Assembly (NCBI GenBank): GCA_043744595.1
Contig: JAYTVK010000060.1
Location: 1 to 18,837 of the forward strand
Source: Candidatus Lloydbacteria bacterium
GTDB lineage: Bacteria; Patescibacteriota; Minisyncoccia; Phycocordibacterales; UBA6899
Length of the DNA stretch: 18,837 nt
Reading direction: 5' to 3'
Below the pieces are notes generated by a model. The model made no database searches and was not told where the DNA came from. It saw nothing but the letters and a program-made list of their open reading frames with translations. Positions 5,319-18,837 of this stretch are shown here, in pieces. Within the stretch, counting starts at the first letter, position 1; each line of letters starts with the position of its first letter. Both the position numbers and the translations under genes were made by a program.

Positions 5319-5855
5319 ATGGCACGCAAGAAGACGCTCATTTCCCTTCCCCTCAACCTCACCGAGCTGAACGAGCGTATCGCGCTCTACAGCAAGCTGC
5401 AACGCGACCTTTCTGTTGAGGAAGCCGCGCGCGACGGAGAGATCGCATTCATCAAGGCGCGTTACGCTCCGATGCTCGCTCAGATTGCGGAGGGCATTGT
5501 ACGCGAACAGTCTGCAATCGAGACTTACGCGAATGCCAACCGTTCTTCCCTCCTTGTCGGCGAGGCCAAGTCGACGTCGCTCGCTGCCGGGCGTATCGGC
5601 TGGCGTCTCGGCGGGTGGCGTGTCGCACTCGCGAAGAACAGCGCCGAAAGGGCTCTCGCTTTCGTGAAGAGCGTACGCGGCCTGCGCAAGAAGTATCTGC
5701 GCGTCGTGTTCGAGCTCAACAAGGAAGCGATGCTTGCAGACCGACCGGAAGTCGACGGTGCATCCTACAAGCAGGACGAATCATTCTTCATCGAGCCGAA
5801 TGCAGCGACCCAGAAGGTCGAAGCAATCGGCGAGGCGATCATGGTCACGAGGTAA
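5319..5855 (+). CDS. gam: Bacteriophage Mu Gam-like host-nuclease inhibitor (Ku-like DNA-end binding protein)
   Basis: AGGAGG RBS. 178 aa, with an N-terminal coiled-coil followed by GRIGWRLGGWRV...LRVVFELNKEAMLADRPEV...ESFFIEP. This is colinear with the Mu Gam motifs (G-V-WR, IR-K-EINKEA, E-F-I-P). Confidence 0.82.
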   Translation: MARKKTLISLPLNLTELNERIALYSKLQRDLSVEEAARDGEIAFIKARYAPMLAQIAEGIVREQSAIETYANANRSSLLVGEAKSTSLAAGRIGWRLGGWRVALAKNSAERALAFVKSVRGLRKKYLRVVFELNKEAMLADRPEVDGASYKQDESFFIEPNAATQKVEAIGEAIMVTR

Positions 5856-5866
5856 CAAGTGATACG

Positions 5867-5902
5867 GTCCGTTCATCTCTTAAGAGGTGGACGGGCTTTT
5901 TT
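5867..5902 (+). terminator. Intrinsic terminator of gam
   Basis: 13-bp stem (with G:U pairs) GTCCGTTCATCTC / GAGGTGGACGGGC, followed by TTTTTT. Confidence 0.7.
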
Positions 5903-5915
5903 ATTTAGATCAAAA

Positions 5916-5992
5916 GGATTTGACCCCTACTGGGTCGGTACACCTTGGTGGTTTCGAAGACGAAACATCACCAAGGTCTTCAAATCCTCTCC
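5916..5992. repeat. Short tRNA-Leu-linked hairpin element (B1)
   Basis: The closing stem GGATTTGA (5916-5923) / TCAAATCC (5980-5987) copies the tRNA-Leu(GAG) T-arm, with TTCAAATCCTCTC matching 13 nt. Inside is a long hairpin: CCTTGGTG-GTTTCG-AAGA-CGAAAC-AT-CACCAAGG. Confidence 0.5.
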
Positions 5993-6007
5993 GCAAGCCA
6001 TGCAGAT

Positions 6008-6125
6008 GGGAGGATTAGGTCACAGATAATTTTCTCGCCGTCGCTCAAAAATTTCTGCGACCCCGACTCGCCGTTTCGTCTGCTGACGAAACATAGACTC
6101 CGTCTTTCAAATCCTCTCTTGGGCA
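6008..6125. repeat. tRNA-linked structured element, copy B2 (possible ncRNA or miniature mobile element)
   Basis: It is colinear over 101 nt with 10132-10232. The first 54 nt from GGTCACAGATAATTTTCTC have only 5 mismatches. The hairpin at 6073-6092 has the same loop but a swapped stem. It ends in a 20/20 inverted copy of the tRNA-Leu(GAG) 3' end (6106-6125). Confidence 0.6.
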
Positions 6126-6127
6126 AG

Positions 6128-6167
6128 AAAATAAGCGTTGAGACATTCTGTCTCAACGCTTATTTTC
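6128..6167. terminator. Bidirectional terminator hairpin downstream of tRNA-Leu(GAG)
   Basis: Perfect 14-bp stem ATAAGCGTTGAGAC / GTCTCAACGCTTAT, flanked by AAA and TTTT. Confidence 0.7.
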
Positions 6168-6172
6168 TATTG

Positions 6173-6256
6173 TGCCCAAGAGAGGATTTGAACCTCCATG
6201 CCCTTGCGGGCGCTACCACCTCAAGGTAGTGCGTCTACCAATTTCGCCACCTGGGC
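6173..6256 (-). tRNA. tRNA-Leu (anticodon GAG), class II
   Basis: The reverse complement is GCCCAGG acceptor, GGCGAAATTGGTAGACGC D arm, anticodon stem CTACC/GGTAG with loop TTGAGGT, a long variable arm, T arm GGAGG-TTCAAAT-CCTCT, then CTTGGGC + A. Confidence 0.88.
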
Positions 6257-14536: not shown

Positions 14537-14559
14537 AGTGCGGAGGAGGTGAGATTCGA
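14537..14559 (-). repeat. Direct 23-bp copy of the tRNA-Ser 3' end (att-like)
   Basis: AGTGCGGAGGAGGTGAGATTCGA at 14537-14559 is identical to 14578-14600 (T-loop to 3' trailer of tRNA-Ser). The two copies are separated by 18 bp. Confidence 0.85.
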
Positions 14560-14581
14560 GCGGTAATAATTTGTTTCAGTG

Positions 14582-14668
14582 CGGAGGAGGTGAGATTCGA
14601 ACTCACGGTCCACTTTCATGGACGACAGTTTTCAAGACTGTTGCCTTCAACCGCTCAGCCACTCCTCC
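14582..14668 (-). tRNA. tRNA-Ser (anticodon TGA), class II
   Basis: The reverse complement is GGAGGAG-TG-GCTG-AGCGGTTGAA-GGC-A-ACAGT-CTTGAAA-ACTGT, then a long variable arm CGTCCATGAAAGTGGACC, then GTGAG-TTCGAAT-CTCAC-CTCCTCC-G. Confidence 0.88.
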
Positions 14669-16978: not shown

Positions 16979-17071
16979 TCGGCACTTCTTGTTGTCGTTA
17001 CGAGAATTTTGACGTTTTGGGTTTTTTTGTGTTAGTGTGTCCCTACCGCAACACTGTGGCAATAACTATCA

Positions 17072-17146
17072 GTCCTCGTCGTTCAATGGATAGGACAAGA
17101 GTTTGCGGAACTCTAAATATAGGTTCGATTCCTATCGAGGGCACCA
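17072..17146 (+). tRNA. tRNA-Arg (anticodon GCG), CCA encoded
   Basis: GTCCTCG-TC-GTTC-AATGGATA-GGAC-A-AGAGT-TTGCGGA-ACTCT-AAAT-ATAGG-TTCGATT-CCTAT-CGAGGGC-A-CCA. Confidence 0.85.
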
Positions 17147-17201
17147 AGACAGAACTCAACGGCTTTTTCAAAGCCAGAAGGTGGGACGCGCGAAGCGCGT
17201 C

Positions 17202-17288
17202 CCACTGATTTCCCCCCATTTTTCCAAACGAATTCAGAATTTTTGGCGCGCTTGCGCGCACTAATTTTTCGCCGAGGAGGAGGTTCGA
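17202..17288. repeat. Left copy of a perfect inverted repeat of at least 87 bp (IR-L)
   Basis: I reverse-complemented 18751-18837 by hand and it is identical to 17202-17288 at 87 of 87 positions. It contains an internal palindrome, GCGCGC-TT-GCGCGC, and a GAATTC site. A 9-bp-stem hairpin (GGGACGCGC-GAA-GCGCGTCCC, 17183-17203) abuts its outer end. Confidence 0.95.
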
Positions 17289-17302
17289 AATCAGAAGCAA
17301 TT

Positions 17303-17330
17303 TTGACTAATAGTATTTGCTTAATACAAA
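17303..17330 (+). promoter_or_regulatory. Putative promoter of the serine recombinase gene
   Basis: TTGACT - 16 nt - TACAAA in an AT-rich stretch about 30 nt upstream of the ATG. It lies inside the IR-bounded segment. Confidence 0.4.
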
Positions 17331-17358
17331 AAGAATTTTTATTACTATGATAAATAAT

Positions 17359-18837
17359 ATGGAAAATAAAAAATTCTTTTTGTATGCTCGCAAGAGTACC
17401 GATGTCGAGGATAAGCAAGTTTTGAGTATCGAGGCACAGCTTCAAGAATTGCGAGACTATGCCAAGAGAGAAAATCTGAACATCGCCCTTGAATTTATAG
17501 AAAAACAATCTGCTAAAATTCCAGGTCGTCCAGTGTTTAATGAGATGATGAAGAAAATTGAAAAGGGCGATGCAGATTCTATCCTCTCTTGGCATCCGGA
17601 TCGTCTCGCAAGAAATAGTATTGACGGTGGGAATATTATTTACCTCCTCGACACAGGGAAACTTGCGAGCCTCAAGTTTCCTACTTTTTGGTGTGATTCC
17701 ACATCACAAGGCAAATTCATGTTAAACATGGCTTTCGGGCAAAGCAAATACTATGTGGATTCTCTTTCCGAGAACACGAAGCGTGGACTTCGCCAAAAAG
17801 TTCGTAACGGAGATTATCCAACGCTTGCCCCTGTGGGATATATTAACGACTCCCGAACAAAAACTGTTGTTGTTGATAGAAAGAAAGCGAGAATTATCAG
17901 GCAAGCGTTTGAGTTCTATGTAAAAGGCGGTAATAGACTGGAAGATGTCTCAAACTTTTTGGCGAAGCACAATATATTTTCAAAAACCGGAAAGAGAATC
18001 CACAAATCCCGCGCGACTTCTATACTTTCCAATCCTTTTTACACTGGACTATTTAGATATGGTGGAGAATTGCACGAAGGAAAGTACGAGCCGATCATTT
18101 CAAAGAAACTTTTTGACCAAGCGCAGGAAATGTTGAAACTTCGCGGTAAGCCCGACAGAAAGCCTCTAAACGACCCCCAACCTTTCTGTGGGCTCATTTC
18201 CTGCGCTTCATGCGGAATGATGATAACTGGCGAATACAAGGCTAAGAAGCAACAGAATGGTAATACTCACGAGTATGTCTATTATCACTGCACAAAGAAG
18301 AACAAAATGGTAAAGTGTGAAGAACCTTGTATTCGACAGGAAGAATTGAATCGCCAGTTATCATCCGAAATACAAAAAGTTTCTTTGCCCAAAGACTGGG
18401 CGGAGGAACTAAATCGCATGGCGTTAGAGGAACACAAAACATCCGCCCAGTCTTTAACTGCTTGTGTGAAAGAGAAGCAAGAGAAGATTTCTACAATTTC
18501 AATTAGACTGGAGCGACTTCTCAATGGTTATCTTGATCAAGATATTGAAAAGGAAATTTATCGTGCTGAAAAAGGAAAATTGCTTTTACAAAAGAAGTCG
18601 CTCGAAGAAGAAATCTACAATCTTTCACACAAGCAGAATGATTGGCTCGAACCTTTCCAAAACTGGCTAGAAGTCGCACAGAATATAGACAAAATCGCTT
18701 CTGATTCAGACTTTTTTGCTAAAAAGGTCTGTGCCAAAGAAATCTTTGGCTCGAACCTCCTCCTCGGCGAAAAATTAGTGCGCGCAAGCGCGCCAAAAAT
18801 TCTGAATTCGTTTGGAAAAATGGGGGGAAATCAGTGG
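17359..18837 (+). CDS. Large serine recombinase (resolvase/invertase catalytic domain + recombinase domain + zinc ribbon + coiled-coil), 3'-open at window end
   Basis: My own translation gives 493 codons without a stop, to the last base of the window, so the ORF is absent from the track. There is an alternative in-frame ATG at 17347. It begins MENKKFFLYARKSTDVEDKQVLSIEAQ (catalytic Ser) and continues ...LSWHPDRLARN...GKFMLNMAFGQSKYYVDSLSENTKRGL. The recombinase domain contains LSNPFYTGLFRYGG. The Cys cluster is CGLISCASCG...YYHCTKK...CEEPC. A coiled-coil tail follows. Confidence 0.88.
   Translation, partial: MENKKFFLYARKSTDVEDKQVLSIEAQLQELRDYAKRENLNIALEFIEKQSAKIPGRPVFNEMMKKIEKGDADSILSWHPDRLARNSIDGGNIIYLLDTGKLASLKFPTFWCDSTSQGKFMLNMAFGQSKYYVDSLSENTKRGLRQKVRNGDYPTLAPVGYINDSRTKTVVVDRKKARIIRQAFEFYVKGGNRLEDVSNFLAKHNIFSKTGKRIHKSRATSILSNPFYTGLFRYGGELHEGKYEPIISKKLFDQAQEMLKLRGKPDRKPLNDPQPFCGLISCASCGMMITGEYKAKKQQNGNTHEYVYYHCTKKNKMVKCEEPCIRQEELNRQLSSEIQKVSLPKDWAEELNRMALEEHKTSAQSLTACVKEKQEKISTISIRLERLLNGYLDQDIEKEIYRAEKGKLLLQKKSLEEEIYNLSHKQNDWLEPFQNWLEVAQNIDKIASDSDFFAKKVCAKEIFGSNLLLGEKLVRASAPKILNSFGKMGGNQW
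18751..18837. repeat. Right copy of the inverted repeat of at least 87 bp (IR-R), inside the recombinase ORF and truncated by the window end
   Basis: It is the reverse complement of 17202-17288. It encodes the recombinase residues SNLLLGEKLVRASAPKILNSFGKMGGNQW. Confidence 0.95.

Follow-up and report, generated by a model that had tools for sequence, protein, structure and literature searches.

A large serine recombinase element with mirrored, probable attachment arms next to a tRNA gene in Patescibacteria

The question raised by the locus

Why would a recombinase gene be bracketed by a perfect inverted repeat that includes the 3' end of its own open reading frame (ORF)? The question arises from an 18,837-nucleotide stretch of DNA (the window) from Candidatus Lloydbacteria bacterium, contig JAYTVK010000060.1 of assembly GCA_043744595.1. 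A first-pass annotation, made from the sequence alone, had described an 87/87 inverted repeat around a large serine recombinase (LSR) gene next to tRNA-Arg, and had proposed a self-inverting switch, a new kind of TIR-bounded element or the remnant of a second inverted copy. The repeat it described is present as stated, whereas its interpretation is supported only in part. The two arms are explained as copies of one half of an attachment site in an apparently undescribed but widespread family of 4-5 kb mobile elements of ultra-small bacteria (Patescibacteria), which appear to use an LSR to insert at the 3' end of tRNA genes. No published description of this element was found in the literature.

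The repeat and the recombinase gene in the window

A repeat search of the window gives two arms of 87 nt, 100% complementary and 1462 nt apart, the second ending at the last base. The window is a complete public contig, its neighbour protein being on record on an 18,838-nt NCBI contig, and the repeat is therefore cut by a contig end. Where the repeat and the ORF end had been named beforehand as a point to check; by homology the full arm is 147 nt, so that about 60 nt of the right arm are missing, and the ORF continues through the rest of the arm and across the attachment core. The main features are as follows.

17072 to 17146, plus strand: tRNA-Arg(gcg), detected by ARAGORN and Rfam.
17142 to 17288, plus strand: left arm (I arm), 147 nt by homology, of which 17202 to 17288 is verified as the inverted repeat here; its inner boundary, AGGTTCGA followed by AATCAGAAGCAATTTTGAC, is identical to that in L002, one of the related loci (numbered L) described below.
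17289 to 18750, plus strand: unique segment S1, the 70-nt 5' region plus the recombinase body (codons 1-464).
17324 to 17385, no strand assigned: a 17-nt perfect inverted repeat (17324-17340 and 17369-17385) enclosing the start codon, with a counterpart in L002; its function was not tested.
17359 to 18837, plus strand: LSR ORF, starting at ATG 17359 and open at the contig end, with 493 codons visible.
18751 to 18837, plus strand: right I arm, encoding recombinase residues 465-493 and cut by the contig end.

The domain content identifies the ORF as an LSR. A resolvase catalytic domain (PF00239) covers residues 7-152 with E = 3.5e-23 and contains the motif YARKSTD, which holds the catalytic serine. 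It is followed by a recombinase domain (PF07508, 175-261) and a zinc-ribbon domain (PF13408, Zn_ribbon_recom, 275-338), both above the curated cut-offs. Homology to the A118 Int and SprA structures extends to about residue 440; no structure was predicted, and the coiled-coil motif inserted in the zinc-ribbon domain of LSRs was not examined. The GC content is 0.38-0.43 in 17201-18800 against mostly 0.45-0.59 elsewhere. A simple sigma-70 scan found no promoter in 17289-17358, and the annotation that S1 carries the promoter thus remains an inference from position. The minus-strand reading from 17300 to 17043 shares NLLLGEKLVRASAPKILNSFGKMGGNQW with the recombinase and then reads antisense through the tRNA, as had been annotated.

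The repeat in related loci

Whether related genomes keep a repeat overlapping the 3' end of the recombinase gene had been put forward as a test. About 70 of 84 related loci, from independent assemblies, have the same repeat around a 67-95% identical LSR, and it is contig-internal in about 35 of them. Typical arm lengths are 147, 159 or 171 nt at 95-100% identity, 147 nt being the most common, and S1 is 1.42-1.59 kb. Nearly all of the 8,000 candidates retrieved, a lower bound on their number, scored as relatives, the top 120 at 73-95% identity. The recombinase has 95% identical hits while the best other hit of the neighbouring host gene is 47% identical, and GC is about 0.40 in the element against about 0.50 in the host, consistent with horizontal transfer.

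This conservation bears on the possibility of an assembly artefact, a fold-back or chimeric join, which had been named in advance as grounds for dismissal. In its favor, the repeat touches the contig end and stops after exactly 87 nt, a length typical of a k-mer, and partial arms at other contig ends cluster at 55, 77 and 99 nt. A unitig carrying the same k-length sequence at both ends can be attached in either orientation. However, the same repeat with the same inner boundary is contig-internal in assemblies made with different assemblers, including 149-kb and 207-kb contigs, and both inner junctions must exist in reads for the contig to be built. An artefact is very unlikely and survives only in a narrow form: the orientation of 17289-18750 in this particular contig may be arbitrary, no reads from the source sample having been examined. 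The neighbour gene occurs in run SRR23617271.

A plain inverted partial duplication of the 3' end of the gene, without a role, is the least likely alternative. The arm is an inverted copy of the ORF's 3' end, and a further 21 nt (17289-17309) match 18686-18706 at 19 of 21 positions, displaced by 44 nt, which suggests that an older duplication was once longer; the same is seen in L002. In contrast, the arms are median 99.3% identical within a locus (15 of 38 at 100%) and median 66% between loci, while the adjacent gene body is 81% identical between loci. The arms thus evolve in concert, with the same inner boundary throughout the family, and coincide with an attachment-site half, whereas a passive remnant would decay. 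The first-pass reading of a remnant of a second inverted copy is not supported. The recombinase frame has no stop codon in 37 of 37 arms, while the other five frames have stops in 16-31 of 37.

Junctions, the empty site and the extent of the element

The outer end of one arm abuts a real tRNA of many kinds (Arg, Leu, Lys, Gly, Glu, Ile, Val, Thr, Phe, Met, Ala, Tyr). The other arm abuts a conserved sequence, psi (about T.T.TATTGTACCAAG.T.GAACCTATTT), which resembles a tRNA 3' half, plus 250-380 nt of conserved non-coding modules. A second inverted-repeat pair, of non-coding plus psi arms (150-405 nt, 98.7-100% identical), brackets 1.6-2.8 kb of variable cargo. This pair was found in ten or eleven loci that had several kb of flank, but was not seen in some others with 3-4 kb (L020, L031, L049). 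The layout in related loci is tRNA ending in CAC, I arm, recombinase segment, inverted I arm, CAC with psi and non-coding region, variable cargo, non-coding region with psi and CAC, and native tRNA trailer. In the window only the tRNA, the arm, S1 and 87 nt of the second arm are present, with psi, the non-coding region, the cargo and attR inferred from homologues. In complete loci the right arm is followed by GTG and psi or by a tRNA.

The junctions fit ordinary LSR logic, with attL at the tRNA, attR at the far end and an intact inverted attP inside. Nine or ten loci show two or all three junction types, which share only a short core.

17142 to 17144, plus strand: CAC, the inferred common core (crossover region) of the attachment sites; in loci with all three junctions, attL, the internal attP and attR share only CAC, or CACCAA.

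The window shows only attL and part of the internal attP, and its junction reads GGGCAC followed by CAAGACAGAACTCAACGG, like the others. The 3' end of the tRNA supplies the attB-derived (B) half of attL, and its terminal CCA is probably contributed by the element: element-adjacent tRNAs end in CCA in 53 of 70 cases, against 17 of 68 for other tRNAs in the same loci. The sequence beyond attR (B') is a terminator hairpin or the next tRNA of a cluster. No direct repeat flanks the element beyond the CAC core, and hence no target-site duplication was detected.

An empty target site, also proposed beforehand as a check, was found in one related genome. In L085, tRNA-Lys(ctt) and tRNA-Arg(tcg) are 18 nt apart, while in L002 the same two tRNAs are 4,933 nt apart with collinear flanks. 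This is the only empty site found, and it belongs to a different locus from that in the window. For the window's own tRNA-Arg(gcg), an exact look-up of the 152-aa neighbour found nothing, and the 506-aa neighbour gave only a 1.7-kb contig and the window's own record, its nearest other homologue being 47% identical; no sister genome and no empty site were obtained in the databases. Nine complete elements measure 4.0-5.1 kb.

These measurements bear on a minimal 1.9-kb IS-like transposon (TIR, recombinase, TIR) inserting downstream of tRNAs in either orientation. Many database copies sit on 1.7-2.2 kb contigs, with several copies per genome and many different tRNA neighbours. However, the occupied/empty comparison gives a 4.9-kb insertion that ends at psi-CAC; the mobile unit extends 2-3 kb beyond one arm to psi-CAC, so the arms are not its ends, and the short contigs are explained by assemblers breaking at the arms. 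Psi plus the non-coding region always lies on the side away from the tRNA, whichever way the gene faces; the gene segment flips inside a fixed frame, so the unit does not insert in two orientations. The TIR-bounded reading of the first-pass annotation is thus not supported and is very unlikely. A related model, an element of about 2.2 kb ending after the non-coding region, was abandoned once second copies of psi were found.

Cargo proteins are not conserved between loci. No protein is shared by the cargo segments of ten loci, which leaves the presence of a recombination directionality factor undecided, as small ORFs and factors encoded in trans are not excluded. No phage structural genes were recognised in the cargo, which was compared only between loci and not scanned against family libraries. 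A prophage integrase was rejected because there is no relative in IMG/VR, because matches to phage-encoded LSRs by tblastn are all below 60% identity (best places 26-29%), and because the cargo is tiny and variable. A tmRNA or tRNA-like RNA gene for psi plus the non-coding region was likewise rejected: ARAGORN and Rfam are silent, psi cannot form a T-arm, and the region occurs twice per element as an inverted repeat. An Rfam search for known RNAs in the arms or the psi/non-coding region found only tRNAs.

Orientation of the recombinase segment

The annotation that inversion would give two C-termini and two transcription directions is supported by comparison. Among the 120 closest homologues, 73 ORFs read into antisense tRNA and about 30 read into a conserved non-tRNA flank, ending in LLYQVRTYFQNK and a stop codon. 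The recombinase segment occurs in both orientations relative to the tRNA, L049 and L089 contrasting with about 30 others. The contigs of these two loci are trustworthy, as L049 is 149 kb and the arms of L089 are 95.9% identical, so that the assembly graph is not collapsed. Most contigs that show the window's orientation break at an arm, and some of them may be assembler choices. The two orientations are seen in different genomes; only assemblies were used, and coexistence within one population was not measured.

In a dedicated self-inverting switch, the recombinase itself would invert S1 between sites in the two arms, toggling its own transcription direction and C-terminus as the primary function of the repeat. 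Both orientations exist with two conserved kinds of C-terminus, and the arms contain conserved sequence at both ends. The left halves of attL and the internal attP (tRNA and psi) resemble each other, both carrying TCGAACC offset by 4 nt, and a recombinase acting on both sites is therefore conceivable. However, a site-specific switch needs about 40-50 bp, not 147-171 nt of perfect identity, and crossover at a fixed point would not homogenise the arms, whose concerted evolution points to homologous recombination. Loci with dissimilar arms persist, canonical LSRs pair attP with attB rather than attL with attP, and the second repeat pair around the cargo shows that the arms come from a duplicated attP region. 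Such a switch is neither shown nor needed, and is considered unlikely. The accompanying premise that classical invertases flip a neighbouring segment rather than themselves is wrong, as hin lies inside its invertible segment.

A model with two inverted attP regions

The explanation favored with reasonable confidence is that the window ends inside a small integrative element inserted at the CAC at the 3' end of tRNA-Arg(gcg). In this view, elements of the family carry two inverted copies of an attP region of about 0.3-0.6 kb, each consisting in order of a non-coding hairpin-rich region, psi, CAC and the I arm, which divide the element into S1 with the recombinase and S2 with variable cargo. Integration through one copy would split it into attL (tRNA, CAC, I arm) and attR (non-coding region, psi, CAC, native tRNA trailer), while the second copy stays intact inside. 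The recombinase segment would therefore always be bracketed by two I arms, the window's inverted repeat, and the cargo by two non-coding plus psi arms. The left arm is then the P' arm of attL and the right arm that of the internal inverted attP copy. The I arm would do two jobs at once, as P' arm and as the last ~49 codons of the recombinase ORF, which then crosses the core and ends in psi with a conserved stop or in antisense tRNA, depending on which way S1 faces. Recombination between the copies (gene conversion, flip-flop inversion) would keep them near-identical and yield both orientations of S1.

The anatomy and its conservation, the junction logic, the single empty site, the concerted evolution of the arms, the reading frame through the arm and the hairpin covariation are shown. 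In contrast, that this LSR catalyses integration at CAC, whether flipping is by homologous recombination or by the LSR, and what the spare attP is for are inferences; recombination was not assayed, and no read-level data show that S1 flips within a population. Some loci depart from the simple scheme: L018 has tRNAs on both sides, L088 has psi on both sides in two different variants, and L016 and L052 have dissimilar arms. These need extra events such as exchange between elements or nested insertion.

A more speculative possibility, not excluded but held only tentatively, is that the spare inverted attP is functional, making the element a two-site LSR system. The recombinase gene would flip between a state with its native stop in psi and a state fused to antisense tRNA, an integration- or inversion-dependent switch of recombinase activity or expression. 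The intact internal attP could react with any other tRNA 3' end without a directionality factor, letting the element move, or invert chromosome segments, from tRNA to tRNA, and L018 would be such a product. If true, this would be a new mode of LSR mobility with a near-universal target, the CAC at tRNA 3' ends.

The element is a frequent reason why Patescibacteria contigs break next to tRNA genes, and knowing its anatomy would improve assembly and annotation of these genomes. For example, ORFs that read into antisense tRNA, and the 85-aa ORF at 17043-17300, are by-products of the arms. LSRs are sought-after genome-engineering tools, and this family appears to use a very short core at the conserved tRNA 3' end, with a P half-site (psi) resembling a tRNA T-loop region shifted by 4 nt. 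The family therefore offers a natural series of attP/attB pairs for studying half-site spacing. The duplicated, inverted attP region, of which no description was found, gives testable ideas about mobility without a directionality factor and about tRNA-to-tRNA rearrangements in very small genomes.

Comparison with known systems

LSR integrases of phages and islands (A118/LI Int, SPbeta SprA, CcrB, XisF) share the resolvase, recombinase and zinc-ribbon domains, the logic of attL, attR and attP with a very short common core, and a recombinase gene next to the attachment site. Identity to the phage-encoded LSRs found is at most 29%, and matches to the named families are weak and far below NCBIfam cut-offs. 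Here the target is the 3' CAC of many different tRNA genes rather than one site, the ORF runs through the P' arm and across the core, the element carries a second, inverted attP region, and no directionality factor was seen.

Tycheposons, the cargo-carrying, tRNA-targeting integrative elements of Prochlorococcus, are also small and carry variable cargo; 910 of 937 elements (tycheposons and related cryptic elements) carry a tyrosine recombinase and the rest an LSR (bioRxiv 10.1101/2020.12.28.424599). Each tycheposon integrase is specific for one tRNA and the elements leave partial tRNA direct repeats, whereas here one LSR family sits at a dozen or more tRNA types, the shared core is only CAC, and there are two nested pairs of long inverted repeats.

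The yeast 2-micron plasmid (FLP with 599-bp inverted repeats) and other flip-flop genomes also have two long, near-identical inverted repeats separating two unique segments, one encoding the site-specific recombinase, with its target inside the repeats and isomers that differ in segment orientation. The present element shows this arrangement, as reconstructed from integrated copies. FLP is a tyrosine recombinase acting on the two repeats of a replicating plasmid, while here the sites are attP-type sites of an LSR used for chromosomal integration. No replication gene was found in S2 and no circular contig was sought or found, observations that do not settle whether the element replicates autonomously or isomerises through its recombinase.

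In the Hin/Gin/Cin switches a serine recombinase gene likewise lies between inverted repeats, as hin does between hixL and hixR, in a segment that occurs in two orientations. Those invertases are small, carry a C-terminal HTH, use 26-bp sites and need an enhancer, whereas the present protein has more than 493 residues with LSR domains, and its arms of 147-171 nt are halves of integration sites. TnpX of Tn4451, TndX of Tn5397 and IS607 also move a small element into many sites that share a short core, possibly without a directionality factor, but lack long inverted repeats and do not target tRNA 3' ends. The IS607 transposase is a small serine recombinase, and the match here is weak (25.9 bits against a cut-off of 110). 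In SSV-type integrases and integration-dependent immunity phages, integration changes the product of a gene spanning attP, as the last ~13 codons of the recombinase are exchanged here. Those systems use tyrosine recombinases, split the integrase gene or truncate a repressor, and none keeps a spare inverted attP.

Hairpins and smaller sequence features

The arm contains three hairpins, and the region around its inner boundary a pair of direct repeats.

17161 to 17175, no strand assigned: hairpin HP3 (GGCTTTTTCAAAGCC), seen in the sequence and the predicted fold, with covarying variants visible in the alignment.
17181 to 17205, no strand assigned: hairpin HP2 (GTGGGACGCGC-GAA-GCGCGTCCCAC), also in the predicted fold, coding 'WDALRASH' on the gene-sense strand.
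17246 to 17259, no strand assigned: hairpin HP1 (GCGCGCTTGCGCGC), a terminator-like hit coding 'VRASAP' on the gene-sense strand; in homologues the stem is replaced by unrelated stems that still pair.
18641 to 18757, plus strand: two direct copies of TTGGCTCGAACCT (18641-18653 and 18745-18757), the second spanning the inner boundary of the repeat.

For HP2, RNAalifold predicts 9 pairs, five of which show compensatory double changes in 12-16 of 38 sequences, and none of those five is ever broken. The att core shows little dyad symmetry, and a search around the inner boundary (TCGA) and around CAC gave nothing convincing; a dyad-like GTTC..TTGGT / ACCAA..GAAC sits 4-5 nt off the inferred core and was not used. 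The frame-shifted tail of one homologue, P0018, is consistent with loss of the 104 bp between the two direct copies, as inferred from its protein sequence. The TCGAACC contained in these copies resembles a tRNA T-loop read antisense, and also occurs in psi and in tRNA T-loops.

The inverted repeat and the recombinase gene

The first-pass annotation described a perfect inverted repeat around a large serine recombinase cassette next to a tRNA-Arg, and this observation is confirmed. A repeat search of the window recovers two arms that are complementary at 87 of 87 positions, the right arm ending on the last base. The relevant features are as follows.

17072-17146, tRNA-Arg(gcg)
17202-17288, left arm of the inverted repeat
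17324-17340 and 17369-17385, a 17-nt perfect inverted repeat enclosing the recombinase start codon
17359 to the window end, recombinase ORF of 493 visible codons, open at the end
18641-18653 and 18745-18757, two copies of TTGGCTCGAACCT, 104 nt apart
18751-18837, right arm of the inverted repeat

The ORF contains resolvase, recombinase, and zinc-ribbon domains and is therefore a large serine recombinase (LSR). The minus-strand reading from 17300 repeats the tail residues of the recombinase and then reads antisense through the tRNA, as had been proposed. The cassette is AT-richer than its surroundings, with a GC content of 0.38-0.43 against mostly 0.45-0.59. The window is a whole public contig, as its neighbour gene is on record on an 18,838-nt contig, and the repeat is therefore cut by a contig end.

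The 17-nt repeat at the start codon, whose downstream arm codes KKFFLY, has a counterpart in the related locus L002 (5850-5888 / 6019-6057), and it could be an operator or an mRNA hairpin that hides the start codon. The second copy of TTGGCTCGAACCT spans the inner boundary of the large repeat. The frame-shifted tail of homologue P0018 is consistent with loss of exactly this 104-bp interval, and the TCGAACC motif also occurs in the conserved sequence psi (see below) and in tRNA T-loops.

Distribution of the repeat among related loci

Homologous recombinases were searched for, and their loci examined for a repeat overlapping the 3' end of the gene, a comparison that had been put forward in advance as a check on the feature. 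The search returned at least 8,000 candidates, nearly all of which scored as relatives, the top 120 being 73-95% identical. Those that carry a source name are mostly called Patescibacteria or CPR bacteria, and many sit on contigs of 1.7-2.2 kb. Their C-termini continue through the arm sequence and then read into antisense tRNA (..GIEP, GFEP, GLEP), and the tRNA differs from locus to locus.

In a scripted comparison of 84 loci, drawn from 80 loci of species-representative genomes and several metagenome loci, the same repeat was found around the gene in about 70. Where the repeat is contig-internal, its length is typically 147, 159, or 171 nt at 95-100% identity, and its inner boundary is the same as in the window. 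The repeat is thus a family trait. Most contigs break inside an arm, and the partial arm lengths at contig ends cluster at 55, 77, and 99 nt, which are common k-mer sizes; in the window the figure is 87. This explains why the window ends where it does, and it also means that the orientation of 17289-18750 in this contig, which was not confirmed here, may be the choice of the assembler. Several genomes carry two copies of the cassette. In L003 (3199-4873) and L004 (3576-3934), a second copy sits at tRNA-Val(tac), 1.4 kb from the first one at tRNA-Leu(gag); no gene is called inside it, so it may be a decayed copy.

Sequences outside the arms and proposed attachment-site junctions

One arm always ends at ..TTGGTG against the 3' end of a real tRNA, and the tRNAs include Arg, Leu, Lys, Gly, Glu, Ile, Val, Thr, Phe, Met, Ala, and Tyr. 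The other arm ends against a conserved sequence, here termed psi, which reads outward as TGGTG/TCTCTATTGTACCAAGYTMGAACCTATTTYCAAAA, the slash marking the end of the arm. Psi contains a T-loop-like TCGAACC placed 4 nt further out than in a real tRNA. It is followed by 250-380 nt of conserved, GC-rich, hairpin-rich non-coding modules (for example L002 5300-5662 and L049 5537-5900), which have no Rfam match. These recurring modules show apparent compensatory stem changes, as judged by eye, examples being GCGGACTCGGTTTTGCGAAA...TTTCGCAAAACCTCGGCTGA and CCGCCCGCA-GGAGGGGTCTGGGGAGGAA-TGCGGGCGG; no function is assigned to them, although terminators or recombinase accessory sites are possible. The frame from tRNA to psi is fixed, and the gene segment is found in both orientations inside it.

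A search for psi revealed second copies. In L002, a 346-nt block of non-coding region and psi occurs twice, inverted and 100% identical, around 2.3 kb holding four small genes, and its outer copy is joined at CACCAA to 27 nt and then to the 5' end of tRNA-Arg(tcg). A second inverted-repeat pair of this kind (150-405 nt, 98.7-100% identical) is present in ten or eleven loci with several kb of flank, namely L002, L019, L028, L047, L066, L068, L071, L075, L081, L082, and L038, where it is cut by the contig start. It was not seen in some other loci with 3-4 kb of flank (L020, L031, L049). The pair brackets 1.6-2.8 kb of AT-rich cargo with no conserved protein. In one locus, L086, a SAVED-domain gene (5559-6104, from precomputed Pfam annotation) lies in the stretch beyond psi; whether it lies inside the element was not checked, and cargo may sometimes be defence-related.

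Written side by side, with the arm of the first repeat pair termed the I arm, the junctions are as follows.

tRNA..CAC / I arm
psi..CAC / I arm
psi..CAC / B'

These junctions share only CAC, or CACCAA where the tRNA trailer begins with CA. B' is a terminator hairpin (L071, L075) or the next tRNA of a cluster (L002, L074). This is the pattern expected for attL, attP, and attR of a serine integrase, the unusual point being that an intact attP remains, inverted, inside the integrated element. The interpretation offered by the first-pass annotation is partly supported: the feature is real, it gives two C-termini, and there are two orientations, but the structure is neither a TIR transposon nor a proven switch. 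It is a new form of LSR integrative element, and no purpose is assigned here to the spare attP. The anatomy of the element, its conservation, and the junction logic are shown by the related loci, whereas it is inferred that this LSR catalyses integration at CAC.

Empty site and mobility

An empty tRNA-Arg(GCG) site in sister genomes had been named as evidence to look for; the empty site described here belongs to a different locus. Metagenome contigs were scanned for the 3' end of tRNA-Lys(ctt), a gap of 3-33 nt, and the 5' end of tRNA-Arg(tcg), and one contig matched (L085), in which the two tRNAs are 18 nt apart. Its flanks are collinear with L002, where the same two tRNAs are 4,933 nt apart, which matches the 4,919-nt block from attL to attR. 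Nine complete elements measure 4.0-5.1 kb. Comparison of L002 (1160-2625) with L085 (259-333) also reveals a second, unrelated LSR (429 aa, 35% identical to that of the window) convergent to tRNA-Arg(tcg), where the sequence departs from the empty site right after CAC; other LSR lineages in these bacteria may use the same tRNA 3' target.

Further signs indicate that the element is foreign and mobile. The host neighbour in the window has no relative above 47% identity, while the recombinase has 95% identical relatives, and, as described, several genomes carry two copies. Element-adjacent tRNAs end in CCA in 53 of 70 cases, against 17 of 68 for other tRNAs in the same loci, and the CACCA of the arm therefore often supplies the CCA.

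Sequence properties of the arm

Within a locus, the two arms are median 99.3% identical, with 15 of 38 pairs at 100%, while between loci the arms are median 66% identical. In contrast, the 150 nt of gene just inside the arm are 81% identical between loci. The fastest-evolving part of the cassette is thus kept identical within each element, which is concerted evolution through recombination between the copies. The recombinase frame has no stop codon in 37 of 37 arms, the other five frames have stops in 16-31 of 37, and common arm lengths differ by 12 nt; translation therefore runs through the arm.

The arm contains three hairpins. In the central one, 5 of 9 pairs show compensatory double changes in 12-16 of 38 sequences, and those pairs are never broken. 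A U-A to U-G change is tolerated only on the gene-sense strand, and the loops are often cUUCGg or cUACGg. This suggests an RNA-level role near the 3' end of the mRNA, although that role is inferred.

Orientation of the gene segment

Among the 120 closest homologues, 73 tails read into antisense tRNA and about 30 read into psi, the psi tails ending in a conserved ..LLYQVRTYFQNK followed by a stop. Many of the psi tails are on short contigs and could be assembler choices. Two examples with the orientation of the window are trustworthy: L049 lies inside a 149-kb contig and shows tRNA, arm, gene, arm, and psi, and L089 has arms that are 95.9% identical, so that a k=141 assembly graph does not collapse them. 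Two routes can produce the two orientations, use of either attP copy at integration or later flipping between the arms, and these were not separated in the present analysis. About 30 contigs that span both arms show the orientation opposite to that of the window, and both states are therefore real.

Some copies are irregular. L018 (3695-5610) has tRNAs on both sides of the cassette, and its arms are 88% identical. L088 (6600-8755) has psi on both sides, of two different variants. L016 (3630-5600) and L052 (100-2010) have arms of different variant lineages. These copies are not explained in detail, but they fit exchanges between elements, nested insertion into a resident attP (psi resembles a tRNA end), reaction of the internal attP with a second tRNA, or tRNA-to-tRNA rearrangement.

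Relation to characterized systems

The enzyme is an LSR distantly related to characterized ones. Phage-encoded LSR matches are 26-29% identical at best, matches to CcrB, XisF, A118 Int, and SprA are weak and far below NCBIfam cut-offs, and the enzyme is absent from IMG/VR. In concept, the element resembles tycheposons, which are cargo-carrying and tRNA-targeting, with a minority using LSRs. The broad range of tRNA targets through a CAC core, an ORF that crosses attP, and two nested pairs of long inverted repeats created by a duplicated, inverted attP region were not found in the literature searched. Formally, the closest layout is that of the 2-micron plasmid.

Other tRNA-associated features of the window

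Two further tRNA genes of the window are accompanied by repeats of their own 3' ends.

14538-14559 and 14579-14600, minus strand, direct repeat of the last 22 nt of tRNA-Ser(tga)
6106-6192, self-complementary stretch of about 90 nt just downstream of tRNA-Leu(gag)

The last 22 nt of tRNA-Ser(tga), TCGAATCTCACCTCCTCCGCAC, are repeated directly 19 nt downstream of the gene, which looks like the scar of another tRNA-integrating element. The stretch downstream of tRNA-Leu(gag) is a long terminator hairpin, the far side of which repeats the tRNA 3' end in inverted form.
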